Sequence record: PZ445424.1
Origin: a phage
DNA length: 60,094 nt
Direction: 5' to 3' (one strand)
Made by a program: the position numbers and the translations under genes. Under the pieces are notes generated by a model, which did not search any database, was not told the DNA's origin, and saw only the letters and a list, made by a program, of their open reading frames with translations. Positions 28,968-54,547 of this stretch are shown in pieces; positions within the stretch are counted from its first letter, which is position 1, and every line of letters begins with the position of its first letter.

Positions 28968-29609
28968 TTATTTACAAGCTTCGAGGAACTCCCGGCGCCA
29001 TTCTTTACCAATATTGCTACCATGCTCCAGTTCTGTAGCGCCCCGGAATGCTTTGGTAATAGTAGAGCTGCCGCATACCTGCTTGACCCCGCGCGACTCC
29101 ATACACATATGCTTAGCATCGATGTAAACGCACACAGCTTTCGGGTCTAAATGCTCCTGGATGGCATCTGCAATCTGGTTAGTAAGACGTTCCTGAACTT
29201 GCAGTCGACGACTAAAAGCATCAACCACGCGAGACAGTTTACTGAGCCCCACAATGCGACCGTTAGGAACGTACCCCACAACAGCACGACCAATAATGGG
29301 AGCCATATGGTGCTCGCAATGACTGTAAACAGGAATATCCCGTACAATAACCATTTCATTAGTATTTTCCGCCCCATCCTCAAAGGTCTTAAACAGCCCA
29401 GCAATATCTGCATCGTAACCGCTAAACCATGTAGCATAAGCTTTAGCTACACGATCTGGAGTCTCTGCTAATCCTGGACGTAACTCAATGCAATCTTCAA
29501 TCTGAGTTAGTAAAGTATGCACCGCGCGAGCAATACGGAATTGAGTACCTTCGTTATCAATAGTAAATTTTGGCATGGTTTGCAGTTTCCTTGTTGTTAA
29601 TGTGGTCAT
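28968..29609 (-). CDS. folE: GTP cyclohydrolase I
   Basis: 213 aa; canonical motifs [10 protein letters not shown] and [10 protein letters not shown]...RLQVQERLT. Confidence 0.85.
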
Positions 29610-29610
29610 A

Positions 29611-30126
29611 TTACAGGCTATAGTTTACGTGACATTTCGAAGTTTCTTCGATGGTGCATTCTACAAGTTGAACACCATGTTCGTCAAGCAGTTGCGGCCC
29701 AATCACGTTAACCATATATGCAGCTAAGTTTTCCGCAGTTGGGTTGAACGGCAGTGATACCAATGAACCTAAATAATCCATTTGATCCCGATGCGACATA
29801 TTGTCCATAGTTGTCGTATCTACAAATTTATTTAAGCTCTCAATGAGTTGATCATGCTCCCAATGCAGGAACTTATGATCCCAGTTGTTTTCCAGCCACT
29901 GGCAAAGTGTAGTCTTAACCACACTAAAGTCGATAACTCGCCCAACATCGTCCAGTTGCTTAAGGGACGCAAAGTCAGCTTCGTGCATGACTGTATAAGG
30001 AACTTTTGGTGCAACCTTAAAATGAAACTTATAGTTGTGACCGTGAAGATGACGGCACTTGCTTTCATGACCTACAACACGATGTCCGGCGCAAATTTCA
30101 TGTGAACGAATTACTGTATAGCTCAT
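29611..30126 (-). CDS. queD: 6-carboxy-5,6,7,8-tetrahydropterin synthase
   Basis: 171 aa; zinc-binding motif CRHLHGHNY and N-terminal CAGHR typical of QueD/PTPS. Confidence 0.8.
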
Positions 30127-38244: not shown

Positions 38245-39114
38245 TTACTGCTGCCACGGCGGGACTGCTGCTTGTGCCGGATGCGGTTCAGCTTGCTGCT
38301 GTGGCTGCGCTTGCTGCTGTGGTGCTGCTGCCTGGCCCGGCTGTGCTACCTGCTGCGCCCACGGCTGCTGAGCTGCTTCCGGTGCTACTGGCTGTTGTAC
38401 CGGAGCTTGCTGAACTGGCTGCTGCGGCGCTGCGTTTTGAGCAGGATTATCCCACGGCTGCGGTGCTGCGTTCTGCCACGGTTGAGCTGCTGCGCCCTGC
38501 TGCGGTGCTGGTTGCTGAACAGGCTGCTGTTGCTGTACCGGAGCTTGCTGCTGTACAGGTGCTTGCTGTTGCTGAGCAAACGGGTTAGCTGCTGGTTGCT
38601 GTGGCGCTGCGCCCGGGAAAGTTGGCTGCTGTGCTGGCGCACCTGCACCAAACGGGTTAGCTACTGCTGGAGCACCCATTGATGGAGCCTCTGCTGCTTT
38701 TTCTGCATATTTAACCGGATCGTTAATGTTAGCGTAACCGTTAGGCTCGTTGCTGTCTTCATAACCTTCCTGAGAACGAACTTTCAGACGCAGGTTCAGC
38801 GGAATGTTATGCAATTGAGCAGGAGTATCCCAGCGAATTACACCAACTGCATGAGACAGAGCGCCCAGTTGCTCGTAAGCGATACGAACAGTATCTTCGT
38901 TGTCATTGATGACGTTATAACGAGCGAAGATTTTACGACCTTTAGCAAAACCGTCAATGATGCTAAACGTTACCTGGATCGCCATACCGCCATTTTTGGT
39001 CGCTTTAAACTCAGACGCTTCAATTACTGCTTTATACCAACCTTTTGGCAATGCGCCGTAAGAAGGTGCTTGATATTGGCTCGCGTCAAAGGTGAATTTA
39101 GTTGGCATAGTCAT
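38245..39114 (-). CDS. DUF669-like ssDNA-binding protein with Gln/Pro/Ala-rich C-terminal tail
   Basis: 289 aa; structured N-terminal ~130 aa followed by QQPxxQQ low-complexity tail; adjacent to Sak4-like ATPase, the usual DUF669 context. Confidence 0.45.
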   Translation of the reverse strand: MTMPTKFTFDASQYQAPSYGALPKGWYKAVIEASEFKATKNGGMAIQVTFSIIDGFAKGRKIFARYNVINDNEDTVRIAYEQLGALSHAVGVIRWDTPAQLHNIPLNLRLKVRSQEGYEDSNEPNGYANINDPVKYAEKAAEAPSMGAPAVANPFGAGAPAQQPTFPGAAPQQPAANPFAQQQQAPVQQQAPVQQQQPVQQPAPQQGAAAQPWQNAAPQPWDNPAQNAAPQQPVQQAPVQQPVAPEAAQQPWAQQVAQPGQAAAPQQQAQPQQQAEPHPAQAAVPPWQQ

Positions 39115-46000: not shown

Positions 46001-46027
46001 AAGGGCCGAAAGGCCCTTTATTTATTT
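46001..46027. terminator. Bidirectional intrinsic terminator (GNRA-loop hairpin)
   Basis: AAGGGCC-GAAA-GGCCCTT followed by TATTTATTT on + strand and a T-rich tract on - strand. Confidence 0.65.
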
Positions 46028-48358
46028 GCTTAAGTCTTTGAAAACACTCTCAATTGACTCGTCTATATACCATCCCAACCCCCTGAAATTACGCTTTAAC
46101 GCATCCTCACGTGTGACTGGGACGAGTGCTCCCATATCTACAAGTTGTTTGATAGTGAGGTCTGTTGCAGTACCTGCTCCCATCCTGTGATTCTTGAATG
46201 CTGCCAAGCCGTAGGTTCTGCGTGTGATGGTTGCCTTCGGAATAATACCGTCAACGCGCAGCTCCTTACGATCACATGCAATTTTACCGCCAAGATAGTC
46301 TTTGCAGACCTGACAGATAGCCTTCACACGCGTTTCATCATCACCACCGATAGTACCTTTTTCCCATGCGTTGATCATAATGTCCTGCCCATGCGTAACA
46401 AAATCTACTGCCCATTGCATGTGATTAGGCTGAACGACAGGATTGATCCAGTTTTCCCCAACTGCTAGCAGGGATGCAAGACGCAGAGCTTTAAGGTGTG
46501 CACGGTTCCACGGCTGACGAATTGCTTCGTCTTTTGTTGCGTTAATGTGTTCATCGCACAACAAGTTAAACTCCCGTTCAATCCTTTCCGCTTCAGGGCT
46601 TAACTGGACGGTAACGGTCTGGAACTTTGCCATTGTCACTAACGTGTGGTTAACGAGATGGCAAACCATGTCCTTTAATTGTTGTGGCATTGTGATTTCA
46701 GGATTTTCGTTTGCAGGAACACGATCCCCTTCATATTGCACAATGTGGAAACGGGACAAGAAACCGTCTTCCATCATTTCACGGGTTAATGCTTCAAAGA
46801 AGGTGTCCGGTGTTGTTTCACCCAGTATGCTGAATGCCACCCCTTCCATTGTCTTGGTATTATTAGCCTTATCAGAATATCCGATACCGCCAACAACATC
46901 CATCGCACCAGATTTTTGATACACATCTGTAATAGTTTGCTTCAAGGTGTAGTTCGCAGTGCCAGGCTGAGCTGTCGCCATACCTTTGATGGTTTTACCG
47001 AACTCACCGTTAATATTCACAAACGAAGTGTGATCCGCAAAACTTTTACGCAAGGCAGGACCGGAAGCATAGTTAGTCATATCTACAAATTCATGCACTT
47101 GCGGTAATTGCTCGCCCACTTGCTTACAAATATAGCTGGGCCCAGCGTGAAGCATTTCTTTACCCACACCTGATCGGGCAATGAGCACAAAGTAACCGTT
47201 CAACCCTGTATTGGTGATAGTATTCCACACCTTACCGCACACTCCGGATAAGAATGCTAACGATGCGGTGATTGCAATTTCTTTCACCGGACGCTGCGAT
47301 GCCTTGTAGATATACTTCGCAAGCTCCCCAGCAAGCCCCGGCGGCCATTCAATAGCGGTTGCATCAATGGACGTACTTTCTGCAACTACTATTTCACCGG
47401 ACGGGCTAACTGTGGTCACAGGCATTTCCGTTACCTGCTGCATTGCACTGTGTGCGGCTTGCATACGGGCAGCGTAATCCCGCGCCAGCGCCGCTACGTT
47501 TTCCTGGGCAATGCGCTCACGCTCCATGCGACCGCGACACATGCGCAAACAACGGTCAATATGAACATTGTTCTTATTAGCCTTCTCACGTTTGCCCAGT
47601 GCACTGTAACGGAACAGACGGCGACATTGCTCATTACTTTCTGTGTAGAATGCATACATGGAAATAAGGGCAAGATCTGCTTCAGACTGGGAAGGGAATC
47701 CCATTTCAACCCATTCACCATTGAATAGGCGTGCATACTTATCCCCGTTGTCCGCTTCAAGCGCACGCTGATGAATGGTTGCATCGTCTTCTACCGGATC
47801 TTTTTCTACCAGTTCAATTTCATATGTCTTGCGTTGAAGATCAATTTCATTCACAAGCATAGTAAGATAATGATCACGTTCTGCAACTGGTTTGTTATAG
47901 ACAGGATTGCCCGTGCAGATAATAAAACGCTCCTGACTATAAACTTCGACACCATCACGACGGCGACCTTTACCGATATTTCCTCTTAACCACAGGTGGA
48001 CACCCAAGCCTGAGCGACTTACTTCGGTGTAAGTATCAAACGCAGTCATGATCTGTTCGAAGCGGCGCAACTGCTCCGGCGTCGTGTGCTTCTTAGGATC
48101 CGGTTCATTGGTTGCATTCTTCACATCCAGGTCGATGCAGGTGAACGGGTCTTGCGCAGTAAGCACAAAGCCAATATAAGGTTTATTGAAATGAGCAGCA
48201 CAACCTTTGGCAGCTTCAAACGTCATTAGCATATCCGGATCGGTAACATCCGCAGCCATCAGGCGCCCGATATCGTTATCCCACACAAGCGGCTTTTTAT
48301 CCGCATCGGCGACCGCCCATTGTGGGAAAGCTTTAATTTCAGCGGGAAACAATTCCAT
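46022..48358 (-). CDS. Replication protein with primase-polymerase (Prim-Pol) N-terminal domain
   Basis: 778 aa; Prim-Pol motif I CIDLDV and motif II SRSGLGVHLWLRG; central SQSEADLAL resembles primase C-terminal region; possible P-loop VLIARSGVGKE. Confidence 0.6.
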   Translation of the reverse strand: MELFPAEIKAFPQWAVADADKKPLVWDNDIGRLMAADVTDPDMLMTFEAAKGCAAHFNKPYIGFVLTAQDPFTCIDLDVKNATNEPDPKKHTTPEQLRRFEQIMTAFDTYTEVSRSGLGVHLWLRGNIGKGRRRDGVEVYSQERFIICTGNPVYNKPVAERDHYLTMLVNEIDLQRKTYEIELVEKDPVEDDATIHQRALEADNGDKYARLFNGEWVEMGFPSQSEADLALISMYAFYTESNEQCRRLFRYSALGKREKANKNNVHIDRCLRMCRGRMERERIAQENVAALARDYAARMQAAHSAMQQVTEMPVTTVSPSGEIVVAESTSIDATAIEWPPGLAGELAKYIYKASQRPVKEIAITASLAFLSGVCGKVWNTITNTGLNGYFVLIARSGVGKEMLHAGPSYICKQVGEQLPQVHEFVDMTNYASGPALRKSFADHTSFVNINGEFGKTIKGMATAQPGTANYTLKQTITDVYQKSGAMDVVGGIGYSDKANNTKTMEGVAFSILGETTPDTFFEALTREMMEDGFLSRFHIVQYEGDRVPANENPEITMPQQLKDMVCHLVNHTLVTMAKFQTVTVQLSPEAERIEREFNLLCDEHINATKDEAIRQPWNRAHLKALRLASLLAVGENWINPVVQPNHMQWAVDFVTHGQDIMINAWEKGTIGGDDETRVKAICQVCKDYLGGKIACDRKELRVDGIIPKATITRRTYGLAAFKNHRMGAGTATDLTIKQLVDMGALVPVTREDALKRNFRGLGWYIDESIESVFKDLSK

Positions 48359-48364
48359 ATTTAA

Positions 48365-48568
48365 TTAAGACCTCCGACGCTTATCGCCTTGCATCTTTTC
48401 CAGGACGGGTTCTGCTAATGAACGTTTATAGATGTACACGCTACCGATTTTAATAGCGCCGGGAATGCATTCGCGCATTCTGGAGAGCTTAAATTTTGAA
48501 ATACCGAACTGGTTTTCAATTTCGGTAGTTGTTATATAGTTGTGATTAAATTCTTCGACGTGGGTCAT
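48365..48568 (-). CDS. HTH DNA-binding protein (AlpA/excisionase-like)
   Basis: 67 aa; ITTTEIENQFGISKFKLSRM helix-turn-helix-like; basic C-terminus; directly upstream of the Prim-Pol gene, as in AlpA-primase pairs. Confidence 0.45.
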   Translation of the reverse strand: MTHVEEFNHNYITTTEIENQFGISKFKLSRMRECIPGAIKIGSVYIYKRSLAEPVLEKMQGDKRRRS

Positions 48569-48629
48569 AGCTCCTCCTTTGTCCGCACACTATACACAGA
48601 TAAGAGGAGCCATTGCAATGCGTTTTGCG

Positions 48630-49376
48630 TTACACGATATGGGGGCAATAATATTTATCCATAACAAACTGAAAAACTTCTTCAGGTGTACGGTCATTAC
48701 GAAGTTCAATCATATGATTGTCCAGCCATTGCAAACTCTCCTCAGCCTTATCTCTATTATTAAAGTGCAATAGCGCTGAAGGTGTATCGCCATGAGGTAT
48801 AACTTCAAGTCTAAATACACCTGTTTCCAGATGCGTTATGTTGCAAGTCGGCCAAACGCCGCGGTTTTCCCATACAGAAGGCGCATCCTCAAACCTGCAT
48901 GAGCTATACCATTTATTGCGAAGAGATGTGATCTCCTTACTTGTTAACGGGGCACCCTTAACCCTTTCATGCTCCTCCAGCCAGGCTTTAAATTTTGGGT
49001 TAGGTTTGCGCCCGGGCTTCCCGCCTTTCGCCTTTGCGCTTTCTTTAAACGCTTGCTCATATGGGTCTGAACCCTTGCCCATGTGGTAATTGAATTTTCC
49101 CGTATAGCTGCGAAGCTCTTTGGCATCCAACTCACGTCCCAACTTATCGCTCACCCATGCAAGGAAAGCCTCCCGCTCTGCATCCAGCTTACCCGCTTTC
49201 GGTCTTACAGATTTTTTAACTGGCTGCTCCACATCCTCGTTGAAGTAATCTTCCACCATAGCAAGCGCCTGTAATTTGGTTGGAGCACCACGCAACCGTG
49301 AGCACGCTTGCACAACCCAAGCCGCGAAGCACATATCCTTAACCACAGTGTTGGAGGTAATAATTTCTTCACTCAT
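48630..49376 (-). CDS. Hypothetical protein
   Basis: Start refined to ATG 49376 (RBS AGGTGG); 248 aa, basic central region; first gene downstream of the repeat-rich region. Confidence 0.45.
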   Translation of the reverse strand: MSEEIITSNTVVKDMCFAAWVVQACSRLRGAPTKLQALAMVEDYFNEDVEQPVKKSVRPKAGKLDAEREAFLAWVSDKLGRELDAKELRSYTGKFNYHMGKGSDPYEQAFKESAKAKGGKPGRKPNPKFKAWLEEHERVKGAPLTSKEITSLRNKWYSSCRFEDAPSVWENRGVWPTCNITHLETGVFRLEVIPHGDTPSALLHFNNRDKAEESLQWLDNHMIELRNDRTPEEVFQFVMDKYYCPHIV

Positions 49377-49476
49377 AATCCACCTGTACGCGTAGAAAGA
49401 AAGGTAATCATATAACAAAGTTTTTGTAATCGCAAAACCTTCGCAAAACTTTGTCTTTCCTGCATTATATTAAACG

Positions 49477-49706
49477 ATAGTGCTAGTGGCCAGCATAGTG
49501 GCATCACCGCTTATAGTGCGCCGTTACTGGCTTCACTATAGTGTGCCACTATACGCTCACTATACACTAATAACTAATTTTATTTTGTTTAGTGGTAATA
49601 AAGTTTTGGGTTTTTGGGGGAGACCCCTATATATCCCGGAAAAAACAAAGAAATAGTAGTAGTAGTGAAAAACATAGTGAAATGCCACTATCTCACTATC
49701 ACTACT
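49477..49706. repeat. Iteron-like cluster: at least 11 copies of hexamer ATAGTG/CACTAT including palindrome CACTATAGTG and (TAG)4
   Basis: Copies at 49477, 49495, 49513, 49534-49543 (palindrome), 49547, 49558, 49653-49667, 49674, 49686, 49694; followed by an AT-rich tract at 49740-49900. Confidence 0.6.
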
Positions 49707-50081
49707 AATTTAATGTGATTCATGGGGGTGTCTATGTACCAAAAACCTAAAACTTTCAGTCAACAGACTAAAAACGGATAGAAACTAAAAGTTAATAAGT
49801 AATACCATAAATATATATAAAATAAGGATTTATTAGTAATGTATATAGTACCTATTGGTATTATTTGAATGTTTTTGGGTCATTGTTAAAAAGTCCCAAA
49901 ACTCGCAAAACCTGAACGGATGCAGATCAAAAGTGAGAAGTCAAGTGCTTTTGAGGGAAATTTATTGAACTATTGTGATCGGAAGGTATATCAAGCTATA
50001 ATGCGCTTAATCGCGGGATATTGGAGGAGGACTTTATTGCGCGGTTAACCGGACCAGTAGGAGGGCTGGCCCGGAAGTAGT

Positions 50082-50408
50082 TTAGAGCTGTACAGGTGTG
50101 AAGTGGGTTAGCATATCGTCGGACATGATACCCGACAGTTTTTCGCTTACCCATTCGGACCAAATACTATCCGGTTCCTGGCGGTGCACAAACCAGATTT
50201 CGGATGTGCCTTCTTTGCGCATCGGTTGCACTTCTACAAGGAACTTGTCCTGCATAAGGCGGGTGAAGCATACGCTGGTCATTGGAACCGGCTTTTCGTC
50301 TTTATTGTAATAAGGAATTAATATTTTATTTCCGAAGTTGGCAACTTCATAAACTGTTCCTTTGCGAAGCCCTCTGATGTCTGTGTAAGAGAGGATAAAT
50401 GTTCTCAT
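50082..50408 (-). CDS. Hypothetical protein
   Basis: 108 aa ORF with GGAG RBS. Confidence 0.45.
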   Translation of the reverse strand: MRTFILSYTDIRGLRKGTVYEVANFGNKILIPYYNKDEKPVPMTSVCFTRLMQDKFLVEVQPMRKEGTSEIWFVHRQEPDSIWSEWVSEKLSGIMSDDMLTHFTPVQL

Positions 50409-50458
50409 GTTTACTCCTAGGGCTCCCGCAGAAGCCCGTTGGTTAATGTGGTTATAGA

Positions 50459-50941
50459 TTATGCGTCAAGTCCGTGGTTGGCGTGAAATTTGTAATGCTC
50501 TTCCGCTTGTTTACGGGCCTGTTTTGCGTCCTCTATAGTATCATATAAACCTAGATACTTTTTCAATCCGTTTATTTGAATGTAAGCCTGAAATTTACAT
50601 GCCTTTTTATTAAAGTAAACTCCTGTTACTCCGGTAGAGTTGTTTATTGCCCTGCTAAGATTTTTACTATTATCGCTTGGCAACACTAAGCGCAAATTCT
50701 CTATGCGGTCGTCCCATGTACAATGATTAATATGGTCTATTTGATGCCCTTCCGGTATCGGGCCTTTATGCAACTCCCATACTAACCTTGAACGACGATA
50801 TAGTTTTCCCTTGTATCCTATCAGGATGTATCCGCGCTTATTTGGTACACCAGCTTTACTACCGATAGAAATCTGTTTAGCTGGTTTTATTTTCCAAAAT
50901 AATTCTCCGTTTTGATAGCTGAAGATATTATTTAAGTCCAT
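50459..50941 (-). CDS. HNH homing endonuclease with AP2-type DNA-binding domain
   Basis: 160 aa; HNH motif EGHQIDHINH...NDRIENLRLV; AP2-like SGVTGVYFNKK...KYLGLYDTIEDA. Confidence 0.8.
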   Translation of the reverse strand: MDLNNIFSYQNGELFWKIKPAKQISIGSKAGVPNKRGYILIGYKGKLYRRSRLVWELHKGPIPEGHQIDHINHCTWDDRIENLRLVLPSDNSKNLSRAINNSTGVTGVYFNKKACKFQAYIQINGLKKYLGLYDTIEDAKQARKQAEEHYKFHANHGLDA

Positions 50942-51539
50942 GATAAGTTCTCCAAGCGTAGAACTGAATGGCGACCGTTGTCCCGTTGTAAGAAGGCATT
51001 GCAGCTTTCATTTCTTTCAGCTCCGGCGTGCGGCCCAGTTCGGCTAAAAGTTTGTCGCCCATTGCCCACACTTCGGCGGTTTTTCCTTTCAGAGGCTTGC
51101 GAGCGCCATTTTTGAAATCGCAGCGAGCAGCTTTTGCATCCTGTTTTGGCGCGGCAGCTTTTGGCTCTTCAATTTTGATTTCAGAAACCTGCGTGGCAGC
51201 TTTTGCATGTTTCATATCTTTCTCTTCCTCCTGCTCCAGAGCTTCGAGGCAGCTTTTGACAATTTCCGGATTTACCATCGGGCGCAGTACCGAGACGCTG
51301 GCAGCTGGCGCGGCGGTCGGTGCCGGAACTTTCTGCTCCGGCTGTTGCGCTTTTTTATGGTCGCGCAGCACCTGAAGCACTTCCTTCTCGACGATGTAAA
51401 AACCGATCTCGTCCTGATGGATTAGCTGTTCGTGTGCGTCGCGTGCAACCTGGCCCCAGCGGGTCTTCAGAGCGCGGCGTGCATTCGTTTTCATGGTGTA
51501 ACGCATTTTGTCCTGTTCGCGGTGAGTTACTTTAGACAT
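50928..51539 (-). CDS. Hypothetical protein (Ala/Pro/Lys-rich centre)
   Basis: ORF track 50928-51584 uses a GTG start; first ATG gives start ~51539. Local reading of the printed sequence showed a 1-nt inconsistency here, so the exact start is uncertain. Confidence 0.4.
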   Translation of the reverse strand: MSKVTHREQDKMRYTMKTNARRALKTRWGQVARDAHEQLIHQDEIGFYIVEKEVLQVLRDHKKAQQPEQKVPAPTAAPAASVSVLRPMVNPEIVKSCLEALEQEEEKDMKHAKAATQVSEIKIEEPKAAAPKQDAKAARCDFKNGARKPLKGKTAEVWAMGDKLLAELGRTPELKEMKAAMPSYNGTTVAIQFYAWRTYHGLK

Positions 51540-53419: not shown

Positions 53420-53432
53420 CCCCCCCCCCCCC
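53420..53432. repeat. Homopolymeric poly(C) tract, 13 nt
   Basis: 13 consecutive C in intergenic DNA about 100 nt upstream of the HNH endonuclease gene. Confidence 0.6.
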
Positions 53433-53530: not shown

Positions 53531-54004
53531 ATGAACTGGAATAACATATTTGAATACAGGGATGGTGTTCTGTATTGGAAGGTGAGTAGACGATGTATAA
53601 ACGCAGGAGACAGAGCTGGATACGTTCAAGAGGACGGATACACGAGAATAGCATTTGAAGGCAAGCAATACCTGCGTCACCGAATAGTGTGGTTAATGCA
53701 CGGAAGAACTATTCCGGAAGGTATGGAAATTGACCACATTGACCATGACCGCCAAAATGACCGAATTGAAAATTTACGTTTAGTTACTGCTGTAGTAAAC
53801 TGTCAAAATAAAGGAAAATATATCAGTAACACAAGCGGCGTTACTGGTGTAAGCTGGGACAGAAAGAATTTAAAATGGTTTGTAACTATAAGAGTCAATA
53901 AAAAGAATGTATTTTTAGGTCGTTTTGACAAATTTGATGAAGCAGTTAAGGTACGAAAGGAAGCGGAATTGCTGTATAATTTCCACGAAAACCACGGTAA
54001 ATGA
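53531..54004 (+). CDS. HNH homing endonuclease with AP2-type domain (paralog of 50459-50941)
   Basis: Start refined to ATG 53531; motifs EGMEIDHIDH...NDRIENLRLV and SGVTGVSWDRK shared with the - strand paralog. Confidence 0.8.
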   Translation: MNWNNIFEYRDGVLYWKVSRRCINAGDRAGYVQEDGYTRIAFEGKQYLRHRIVWLMHGRTIPEGMEIDHIDHDRQNDRIENLRLVTAVVNCQNKGKYISNTSGVTGVSWDRKNLKWFVTIRVNKKNVFLGRFDKFDEAVKVRKEAELLYNFHENHGK

Positions 54005-54023
54005 TGGTTAAGCGGAGGAAATT

Positions 54024-54209
54024 GTGAGACTTGGACCTTATCTTGGTTTCTATGGTCGTGCTTTTTGGAATGATGAAACAAACAGGTTTGAAGGTTGGCT
54101 AATTACACCAGATCGTTTTACATTTCACAGTGTGAAAGAGAAGAACATCGTTCTTAATTTTCAAAAATGTGTCACTAAATATGTAGAGGAGCAAGAAGAA
54201 TGCGTGTAG
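54024..54209 (+). CDS. Hypothetical protein
   Basis: 61 aa ORF, non-ATG start in ORF track. Confidence 0.3.
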   Translation: MRLGPYLGFYGRAFWNDETNRFEGWLITPDRFTFHSVKEKNIVLNFQKCVTKYVEEQEECV

Positions 54210-54496
54210 AAGAAATTGTTGAAGGTAAAGAGTACCGTTTGCTAACCGATATCGGTGCTGTAGGCTATACTCCGGACGGTGCAGCTTGTTTTAATGTCTT
54301 ACCGCAAGCGGCAATTGTCACAGTTAATAAGGTTGTGACAAATTTATACACTACTTCGCCTGACGGCAATTGGCCACATGCTGTTATTGTCACCTTCGGT
54401 AAAGATGGTTATGTTGATCTTGAAGATGACGAAAATGACGCTTATGAAGTAAGTTATACCGGACTTGTAAGTCCTAATTTCCTGGAGGAAGTGTAA
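54200..54496 (+). CDS. Hypothetical acidic protein
   Basis: 98 aa ORF with RBS GGAGCAAG. Confidence 0.4.
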   Translation: MRVEEIVEGKEYRLLTDIGAVGYTPDGAACFNVLPQAAIVTVNKVVTNLYTTSPDGNWPHAVIVTFGKDGYVDLEDDENDAYEVSYTGLVSPNFLEEV

Positions 54497-54547
54497 TTAT
54501 CAATCTATAATGGGCTCTACGGAGCCCTTAATTATCTGGAGGTTGTT

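Follow-up and report, generated by a model that had tools for sequence, protein, structure and literature searches.

A candidate replication origin with two interleaved, exchangeable repeat families in Escherichia phage WildeMaa

The genome of Escherichia phage WildeMaa (Bas23, MZ501112.1; Seuratvirus, Queuovirinae), which constitutes the window of 60,094 nucleotides analyzed here (window coordinates equal record coordinates minus 535), contains a 705-bp intergenic gap at 49377-50081 that probably is an origin region of replication. Short repeats of the type [CG]CAAAA(A)C (family 2) and the AT-rich tract bracketed by them would form the core where the helicase is loaded, and a dense array of ATAGTG/CACTAT hexamers (family 1) would be bound by the product of the adjacent gene bas23_0071 (0071 in the following) as a swappable accessory or regulatory module. 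According to the open reading frame (ORF) map and the GenBank annotation, the gap separates the minus-strand genes bas23_0073 and bas23_0071 within a long minus-strand transcription unit, with small genes and an HNH endonuclease gene upstream. Downstream follow, in this order, 0071 (248 amino acids), 0070 (67 amino acids), and the gene of a 778-amino-acid primase-helicase, and then the remaining replication genes and the deazaguanine genes. The gap precedes the first gene of the replication operon, and the 1,019 bp between it and the start codon of the primase gene include 0070 and 0071. A preliminary description of this DNA had already suggested an iteron-type origin. The unique array, the least stable DNA of the window, the minimum of the cumulative G-C curve, the position at the operon head, and the co-variation of repeats with proteins of the replication module all fit an origin as indirect evidence, but the proteins that had been named as partners of the array were the wrong ones.

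Two repeat families and an AT-rich core

Ten exact copies of ATAGTG or CACTAT are found within 224 bp of the gap (49477-49700), compared to 20 in the other 59.9 kb and to 0.075 copies expected from the rest of the genome (Poisson P ~1e-18). This is the densest hexamer cluster in the whole window, and elsewhere the motif occurs at or below background, so that the genome-wide count proposed as a check in the preliminary description speaks for local enrichment. The "at least 11 copies in ~230 bp" reported there describe a truly dense array, but the exact copies number only 10 and an eleventh is reached only by including copies with one deviating base. If the TAGTG core is counted, 49477-49705 contain 15 sites, eight forward and seven reverse. 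They form two clusters whose sites converge, each having forward copies in its left part and reverse copies in its right part. Cluster 1 (49477-49570) contains forward ATAGTG at 49477, 49495, 49513, and 49538 and CTAGTG at 49483, followed by reverse CACTAT at 49534, 49547, and 49558 and CACTAA at 49565, and includes the palindrome CACTATAGTG (49534-49543). Cluster 2 (49653-49705) starts with ATAGTAGTAGTAGTG (49653-49667), whose overlapping cores, among them GTAGTG at 49662, make up a (TAG)4 run, and continues with ATAGTG at 49674, CACTAT at 49686 and 49694, and CACTAC at 49700. A further one-off copy, TTAGTG, is located at 49589. Both the palindrome and the (TAG)4 microsatellite had been recognized before and are present.

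Taken together, 63 sites of five genomes have the consensus (A)TAGTG(G/A). Relatives with the same hexamer differ in the spacers but have retained the hexamers and the bases next to them, and in the homologous gap of SeppeHuegi the motif is similarly enriched (10 copies versus 0.25 expected). The TAG run (TAGTAGTAGTAGTG) has been kept in SeppeHuegi, KurtStettler, and SA126VB and even in the distant contig L018. Conceivably, the clusters could act as DNA cruciforms or hairpins or as structured RNA instead of protein-binding sites, and both WildeMaa clusters indeed fold far better than shuffled sequences (z of about -4.3 to -5). This folding advantage is not conserved, however, as cluster 1 scores z = -2.8 in SA126VB, -1.9 in SeppeHuegi, and -1.6 in CAjan. 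Moreover, the spacings of the arms are not mirror images, and the hexamers are conserved but the pairing register is not, which renders a purely structural role extremely improbable. A scan of 48500-51000 against Rfam retrieved only a chance-level match to IMES-5 (E = 0.99; 19.6 bits versus a gathering threshold of 96.1).

The second repeat family, which had been overlooked in the preliminary description, has the fuller form [CG]CAAAA(A)C(C/T)T and is represented by eight copies in the gap (0.3 expected). These repeats are interspersed with those of the ATAGTG clusters and are found on both sides of the AT core. Near the promoter of the 0071 operon, in its predicted 5' leader (49418-49451), are CAAAAACTT (minus strand, 49418), TCGCAAAACCT (49430), and TCGCAAAACTT (49441). 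Two reverse copies are contained in GTTTTGGGTTTTTGG between the ATAGTG clusters (49601-49617, minus strand). The left edge of the AT core is marked by CCAAAAACCT followed by the degenerate TAAAACTT (49739-49756, plus strand), and the right edge (49871-49913) by GTTTTTGG (reverse, 49871) and, on the plus strand at 49894-49913, by TCCCAAAAC (49894) and another TCGCAAAACCT (49903).

The AT-rich core itself, a putative DNA-unwinding element, extends over 49757-49876. It includes the least stable 100-bp duplex of the 60-kb window (49777-49876; 82% AT), with a free energy of -102.5 kcal/mol compared to a mean of -135.3 and a standard deviation of 7.3, and the AT content is 70-86% in windows across 49750-49900; the AT-rich tract noted earlier is therefore real. 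This core and a rightward promoter at the right edge of the gap are conserved in all Seuratvirus-like genomes examined, even in those with swapped repeat modules, and only partly in the more distant Hafnia phage yong3. The cumulative G-C curve, another check that had been proposed, reaches its minimum at 49401-49600 and thus on the array, whereas the divergent switch of transcription is located elsewhere, near 52.8 kb. Exact DnaA boxes (TTWTNCACA) are lacking in the region, where only two matches with one mismatch occur, and a scan for the consensus site of the integration host factor found none. An origin dependent on either host protein was rejected for these reasons. Among other hexamer accumulations in the window, the third-densest is a run of 13 consecutive C residues in the early region (53420-53432), which has no obvious function, and nine GCAGCA/TGCTGC hexamers within 250 bp (38276-38525) belong to a coding sequence and form a repeat of the trinucleotide type.

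Co-variation of the repeats with 0071 and the primase-helicase

The gap was compared among 20 related genomes. Homologous gaps of 606-829 bp, or longer where an HNH gene has been inserted, exist in the 14 other GenBank Seuratvirus loci compared and in the contigs L018, L020, L021, and L029. Their right part is conserved and their left part is modular. ATAGTG arrays (type A) are found in WildeMaa, Greed, SA80RD, SA126VB, Dru_SM1, SeppeHuegi, phiG7, KurtStettler, and L018, and ATAGGG/CCCTAT arrays (type B) in CAjan, Seurat, SLUR76, L021, and, as a variant, L020. GGAATA(A) arrays (type C) occur in Skure, GottfriedDienst, VogelGryff, STP-SP5, ECP2304, and contig L028; here the arrays flank the AT core on both sides, and other small genes replace 0070 and 0071. 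One of the three small ORFs in the type-C cassette of Skure (L010, 1821-2102) shows a weak match to the AP2 domain (E = 2e-4, below the gathering score) and is a candidate binder of the GGAATA arrays. In Nipunavirus JG054 the gene order is the same, but the gap contains just three copies of TTAACAC and a small AT patch and is uninformative.

Pairs of close relatives delimit the exchanged block. The flanks of L018 (ATAGTG) and L021 (ATAGGG) are 95-99% identical, and the single block in which they differ comprises the family-1 part of the gap, 0071, and part of 0070. Similarly, the type-C phages Skure, VogelGryff, and GottfriedDienst share 98-100% identity with WildeMaa in the middle domain of the primase, and Skure even 100% in the C-terminal domain. 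WildeMaa and SeppeHuegi are ~93-98% identical over most of 22-60 kb, and their main divergent parts are the C-terminal half of the primase and a block consisting of 0071 and the gap, besides a few shorter blocks. Because most of this stretch remains 93-98% identical, the divergence reflects a local replication-specificity module and not clade-wide drift. Against the same background, identity between the two phages also drops to ~80% at 29000-30000 and 54000-54500. Judged from these alignments, phages that are otherwise almost identical exchange the array together with 0071 as a single cassette, of which ATAGTG, ATAGGG, and GGAATA versions exist.

The preliminary description had placed the array beside genes for a helix-turn-helix (HTH) protein and a primase-polymerase. 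Both genes are nearby, but the immediate neighbor is 0071 (48630-49376, minus strand; phrog_27223), which was not mentioned there. By sequence comparison, 0071 is the protein that tracks the hexamer type, which neither the primase nor the 67-amino-acid protein does. The signal resides in residues 51-125 (codons at 49002-49226, minus strand). Across three genome backbones, this segment is 53-82% identical in pairs with the same motif and 33-42% in pairs with different motifs, without overlap, whereas the identity ranges of the other three segments (N-terminal, middle, and C-terminal) overlap between motif types. Since only residues 51-125 separate by motif, 0071 is a mosaic protein with a putative specificity-determining segment, and it is proposed here as the binder of the ATAGTG array. 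The protein is an orphan: profile searches against Pfam, PHROGs, NCBIfam, and PDB sequences gave no informative match, distant homologues were also missing from 1.84e9 representatives that were searched exhaustively with a profile, and no similarity to any known initiator was detected. An internal duplication (residues 60-112 versus 124-165) was considered but dropped, as BLASTP produced no alignment.

The 67-amino-acid protein 0070 (48365-48568, minus strand; phrog_11967), a conserved partner of the primase gene, had been regarded as the HTH protein whose operator the array might be. Its gene lies in the same cassette region, and by eye its pattern resembles an excisionase-type winged HTH, which is not a tool result. 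However, profile searches (Pfam, PHROGs, NCBIfam, and PDB sequences) revealed no HTH or other informative match, so the assignment found no confirmation. Furthermore, 0070 of L021, which has ATAGGG arrays, is 73-75% identical to the versions of ATAGTG phages, with the putative recognition stretch unchanged, but only 52% to that of CAjan, which has ATAGGG arrays as well, and the 0070 proteins of L020 and CAjan are 100% identical although their first clusters differ. That 0070 reads the array is accordingly very unlikely. The annotation of Dru_SM1 gives, as the best PHROG match for the 0070 family, a gene of Nipunavirus JG054 that occupies the equivalent position.

The primase-helicase (46022-48358, minus strand) consists of an NrS-1-type primase-polymerase domain with a helix-bundle domain, an MCM-like AAA+ ATPase, and a C-terminal domain. 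Its earlier assignment as a primase-polymerase was corroborated, as this domain matches PriRep5 of the staphylococcal pathogenicity island (SaPI) SaPI5 by sequence (7OLA, E = 8e-11) and the architecture is of the NrS-1 type. The AlphaFold model is confident (predicted local distance difference test score 89.8) and has structural matches to NrS-1-type primase-polymerases, MCM-like ATPases, and winged-helix-like folds; PriRep5 is not among the top structural matches. Because the range of the winged-helix-like matches was not reported, we infer from the beta-alpha-alpha-alpha-beta-beta order of the modeled C-terminal domain (residues 661-778; 46025-46378, minus strand) that they probably belong to this domain. 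When it was used as a lone query, a homologue search retrieved nothing, and the full-length protein was used instead.

The C-terminal domain co-varies with family 2. Phages of one repeat class share 100% identity in residues 661-778 and those of different classes 37-45%, whereas identity in the primase-polymerase and helix-bundle domains is 90-100% in all comparisons. At equivalent positions the family-2 words are TATAAAC(T/C)T in class II and ATAAAAT(T) in class III; class-II phages have CTATAAACTTATAAACTT at the left-edge position and TATAAAC-type copies at the right-edge positions. The family-2 class equals the primase class in 18 of the 20 genomes, which are all that could be classified, and the two exceptions carry an HNH insertion. 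The class is independent of the family-1 type, with seven combinations observed (A+I, C+I, A+II, B+II, A+III, B+III, and C+III). Between ~95%-identical phages, the primase-helicase is a sharp mosaic, with 98-100% identity in residues 34-310, ~70% in 311-660, and 42% in 661-778.

These data also bear on the assumption that the ATAGTG hexamers are the iterons of the primase-polymerase/helicase, the form in which the origin had initially been proposed. SaPI Rep and PriRep proteins recognize penta- or hexanucleotide iterons in opposite orientations (PMC9371898), and the primase gene is close to the array. Yet phages whose arrays differ have C-terminal domains of 100% identity, as seen for WildeMaa (ATAGTG) and Skure (GGAATA), SeppeHuegi (ATAGTG) and CAjan (ATAGGG), and L018 and L021. 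Almost all of the remaining protein is the same as well, with primase-polymerase and helix-bundle domains that are 90-100% identical. Recognition of ATAGTG by this enzyme thus has very little probability. Neither of the two partners initially suggested holds, as the C-terminal domain of the primase is the same across array types, the 67-amino-acid protein does not follow the hexamer, and 0071 does.

A connection to packaging was considered as well. Known pac sites can be hexamer arrays, as in phage P1. The record of the type-C phage ECP2304 (OR880647.1; L016/L017) contains a 3,695-bp terminal duplication whose left end lies inside the GGAATAATTTATTCC palindrome of its family-1 array; the right end could not be placed in the window. 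However, comparable ends are absent from all other records, and the duplication could either have arisen during sequence assembly or hint at genuine terminal repeats with their start at the array. In addition, the terminase gene is ~10 kb away, and the array co-varies with a gene of the replication cluster, not with packaging genes. A function of the array as a pac site or terminal-repeat boundary is therefore highly improbable.

HNH homing endonuclease genes are variably present around the origin module. One is located at 50459-50941 in WildeMaa and is shared by CAjan but absent from Greed, and another sits between the primase gene and 0070 in SA80RD, Dru_SM1, ECP2304, and L020. Such elements may drive local recombination that shuffles the origin modules.

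A model of origin function and the operator alternative

A mechanism of binding, loading, melting, and regulation can be inferred from the enrichment and architecture of the repeats, from their co-variation with two different proteins, from the stability of the duplex, and from the domains of the primase-helicase. The winged-helix-like C-terminal domain of the primase-helicase would read the family-2 repeats that bracket the AT tract (~49757-49876), and the enzyme would load itself and melt this tract in the manner of the SaPI Rep/PriRep initiator-helicases. Through residues 51-125, 0071 would bind both ATAGTG/CACTAT clusters with their 15 TAGTG-core sites. As the array begins inside the predicted operon promoter, occupancy by 0071 would throttle the 0071-0070-primase operon, and the nucleoprotein complex formed next to the core may in addition control or assist origin firing. 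An action of family-1-type arrays at the origin, too, is suggested because their type-C equivalents bracket the core.

The promoter in question is a sigma-70-like promoter (TGGCCA, 17 nt, TATAAT) predicted by a consensus scan at 49464-49492 on the minus strand. The copies ATAGTG 49477 and CTAGTG 49483 fall into its spacer and -35 region, and homologous promoters are annotated in SA80RD and SA126VB, which makes autoregulation likely. The -10 element of a promoter-like site upstream of 0070 (TTGCAA-18-TATAGT; 48583-48618, minus strand) coincides with a solitary ATAGTG copy (CACTAT 48588), and in SeppeHuegi the -10 element of the 0071 promoter itself is TATAGTG. GenBank lists a 44-amino-acid ORF, bas23_0072 (49373-49507, GTG start), that spans the predicted promoter and the first ATAGTG copies. 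It is not annotated in close relatives such as Greed and CAjan and probably is spurious rather than a real gene. The preliminary description of the region as non-coding agrees with the 705-bp gap in the ORF map but has to be qualified, as bas23_0072 formally covers the first repeats.

A second sigma-70-like promoter (TTGTGA, 18 nt, TATAAT), found by the same type of scan, points rightward at 49973-50002 (plus strand) and is conserved in most relatives but not evident in yong3. It is followed by ~75 bp of near-invariant, hairpin-rich sequence (49973-50081 including the promoter) antisense to the 3' end of bas23_0073. By eye, L018 and L021 show apparent compensatory changes in the first hairpin. 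The genomes of Dru_SM1 and SLUR76 instead contain, after the promoter, an inserted HNH endonuclease gene on the plus strand. The conserved sequence could represent a small antisense or leader RNA or serve origin-activating transcription.

Because the first copies lie in the spacer of the predicted 0071 promoter, the array may be an operator as well as, or instead of, an origin element. The preliminary description had offered an operator as an equal alternative; this role is possible, alone or alongside an origin function, but with a reader other than the 67-amino-acid protein. In the strict form of this alternative the array is a transcriptional operator only, 0071 regulates the promoter of the replication operon and perhaps the rightward one, and the origin is the family-2/AT core or is located elsewhere. 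Such an arrangement would agree with the first copies in the -35/-10 spacer, with the ATAGTG-containing -10 elements of SeppeHuegi and of the site upstream of 0070, and with the location of both clusters to that side of the AT core where the promoter lies, and it would produce the same co-variation with 0071. However, 15 sites in two clusters, up to 240 bp upstream, are far beyond the needs of simple autoregulation. In type C, GGAATA arrays are present on either side of the AT core, and the distance to the cassette promoter exceeds 600 bp for one of them; furthermore, family-2 repeats are interspersed in the ATAGTG array. We thus consider an exclusive operator function unlikely.

Several observations weigh against the origin model outlined above. 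In types A and B both hexamer clusters are on one side of the AT core, unlike in classic iteron origins, and a purely transcriptional role of ATAGTG fits most of the array-specific evidence equally well. The cumulative G-C minimum is shallow, and GC skew in phages largely follows transcription. The promoters are consensus predictions. The correspondence between family 2 and the primase C-terminal domain is based on three allele classes, physical linkage could contribute to it, and Hafnia phage yong3 has a fourth C-terminal allele together with a class-II-like motif.

Relation to known origins and implications

The core of the putative origin resembles SaPI origins, and the unusual part is the cassette of array and orphan protein that can be exchanged on its own. 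In PriRep5, a primase is fused to a helicase that loads itself, and the winged helix at the C terminus binds to 6-12 iterons of five or six nucleotides that are distributed to either side of a central AT-rich region (PMC9371898). The SaPI Rep/PriRep proteins (PDB 7OLA) and the WildeMaa enzyme have in common a polypeptide of ~780-790 amino acids that combines primase and hexameric helicase, with homologous primase-polymerase domains. In SaPIs the C-terminal domain sets origin specificity, and in WildeMaa and its relatives the alleles of this domain track the family-2 class. Both systems contain repeats of 5-7 bp in both orientations around an AT-rich center near the helicase gene, with specificities that differ between related elements. 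This layout of short, oppositely oriented repeats split by an AT center is displayed by family 2 but not by the ATAGTG family, whose clusters both lie on the left. The two systems differ in that the repeats tracking the C-terminal domain of the helicase are those of family 2 and not the ATAGTG hexamers. Further differences are that SaPI origins lie directly downstream of rep, whereas the WildeMaa gap precedes the operon and is separated from the primase gene by ~1 kb containing two other genes, and that SaPI origins lack a layer comparable to the interleaved second array with its orphan protein 0071.

The co-variation of the array with 0071 is reminiscent of lambdoid origins. Phage lambda has four 19-bp iterons inside the O gene, and the O protein recruits the host DnaB through the P protein. 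Among closely related lambdoid phages the initiator segment and its cognate repeats change together, an AT-rich tract lies beside the repeats, and O is a mosaic binder whose specificity and C-terminal segments are shuffled independently. The corresponding features in WildeMaa are the co-variation with residues 51-125 and the mosaic structure of 0071 seen in the segment comparison. The WildeMaa sites differ in having 5-6-bp cores that lie outside the gene of the putative binding protein; moreover, the phage encodes its own helicase, and 0071 has no detectable similarity to O. The alpha protein of the satellite phage P4 is a primase-helicase whose C-terminal domain binds short repeats in two separate clusters, ori and crr, and thereby resembles the WildeMaa system. 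In P4, however, a single repeat type serves one protein, the clusters are ~4.5 kb apart, and the primase and helicase folds differ.

Omega of pSM19035 and the ParR-parC system of plasmid R1 also involve many closely spaced short sites, in part separated by 6-8 bp, that occur as direct and inverted copies. These arrays overlap with a promoter or lie next to it, and a single small protein that regulates its own synthesis binds them. In contrast, 0071 has 248 amino acids and no ribbon-helix-helix signature, WildeMaa is a lytic phage, and its array adjoins an unwinding element and helicase-type repeats. No partition ATPase is encoded nearby, and a partition centromere (parC/parS) was rejected because the neighborhood, composed of 0071, 0070, the primase gene, HNH endonuclease genes, and small ORFs, contains no ParA- or ParM-like gene. 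A literature search on origins, iterons, or termini of Seuratvirus or Queuovirinae, or on these repeats, retrieved nothing relevant.

Rather speculatively, 0071 could be the founder of a new DNA-binding fold that reads TAGTG/TAGGG cores of 5-6 bp, including 3-bp-phased overlaps as in TAGTAGTAGTAGTG, and might constitute, together with the array, a swappable origin-licensing cassette placed on a SaPI-like core. We regard this proposal as tentative and on balance doubtful. If it were true, origin firing would be under the private control of each phage lineage through its own cassette, which could also decide the outcome of co-infection between near-identical phages, like a determinant of replication incompatibility or exclusivity.

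Seuratviruses and other Queuovirinae, whose DNA carries 7-deazaguanine modifications, are model phages of the BASEL collection. The analysis provides a testable map for these phages, which consists of a core origin, a candidate self-loading primase-helicase with three alleles of the specificity domain, and an orphan protein with three array versions. Because near-identical phages differ only in these modules, ready-made swap controls are available. If the proposed origin model is correct, a function would be assigned to the orphan protein family of 0071, and uses in phage engineering may include origin-plasmid amplification, orthogonal replicons, and the prediction of interference during co-infection. 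The logic of SaPI-type self-loading helicases and iterons would then extend to lytic coliphages, complemented by a second, independently exchangeable layer of recognition.

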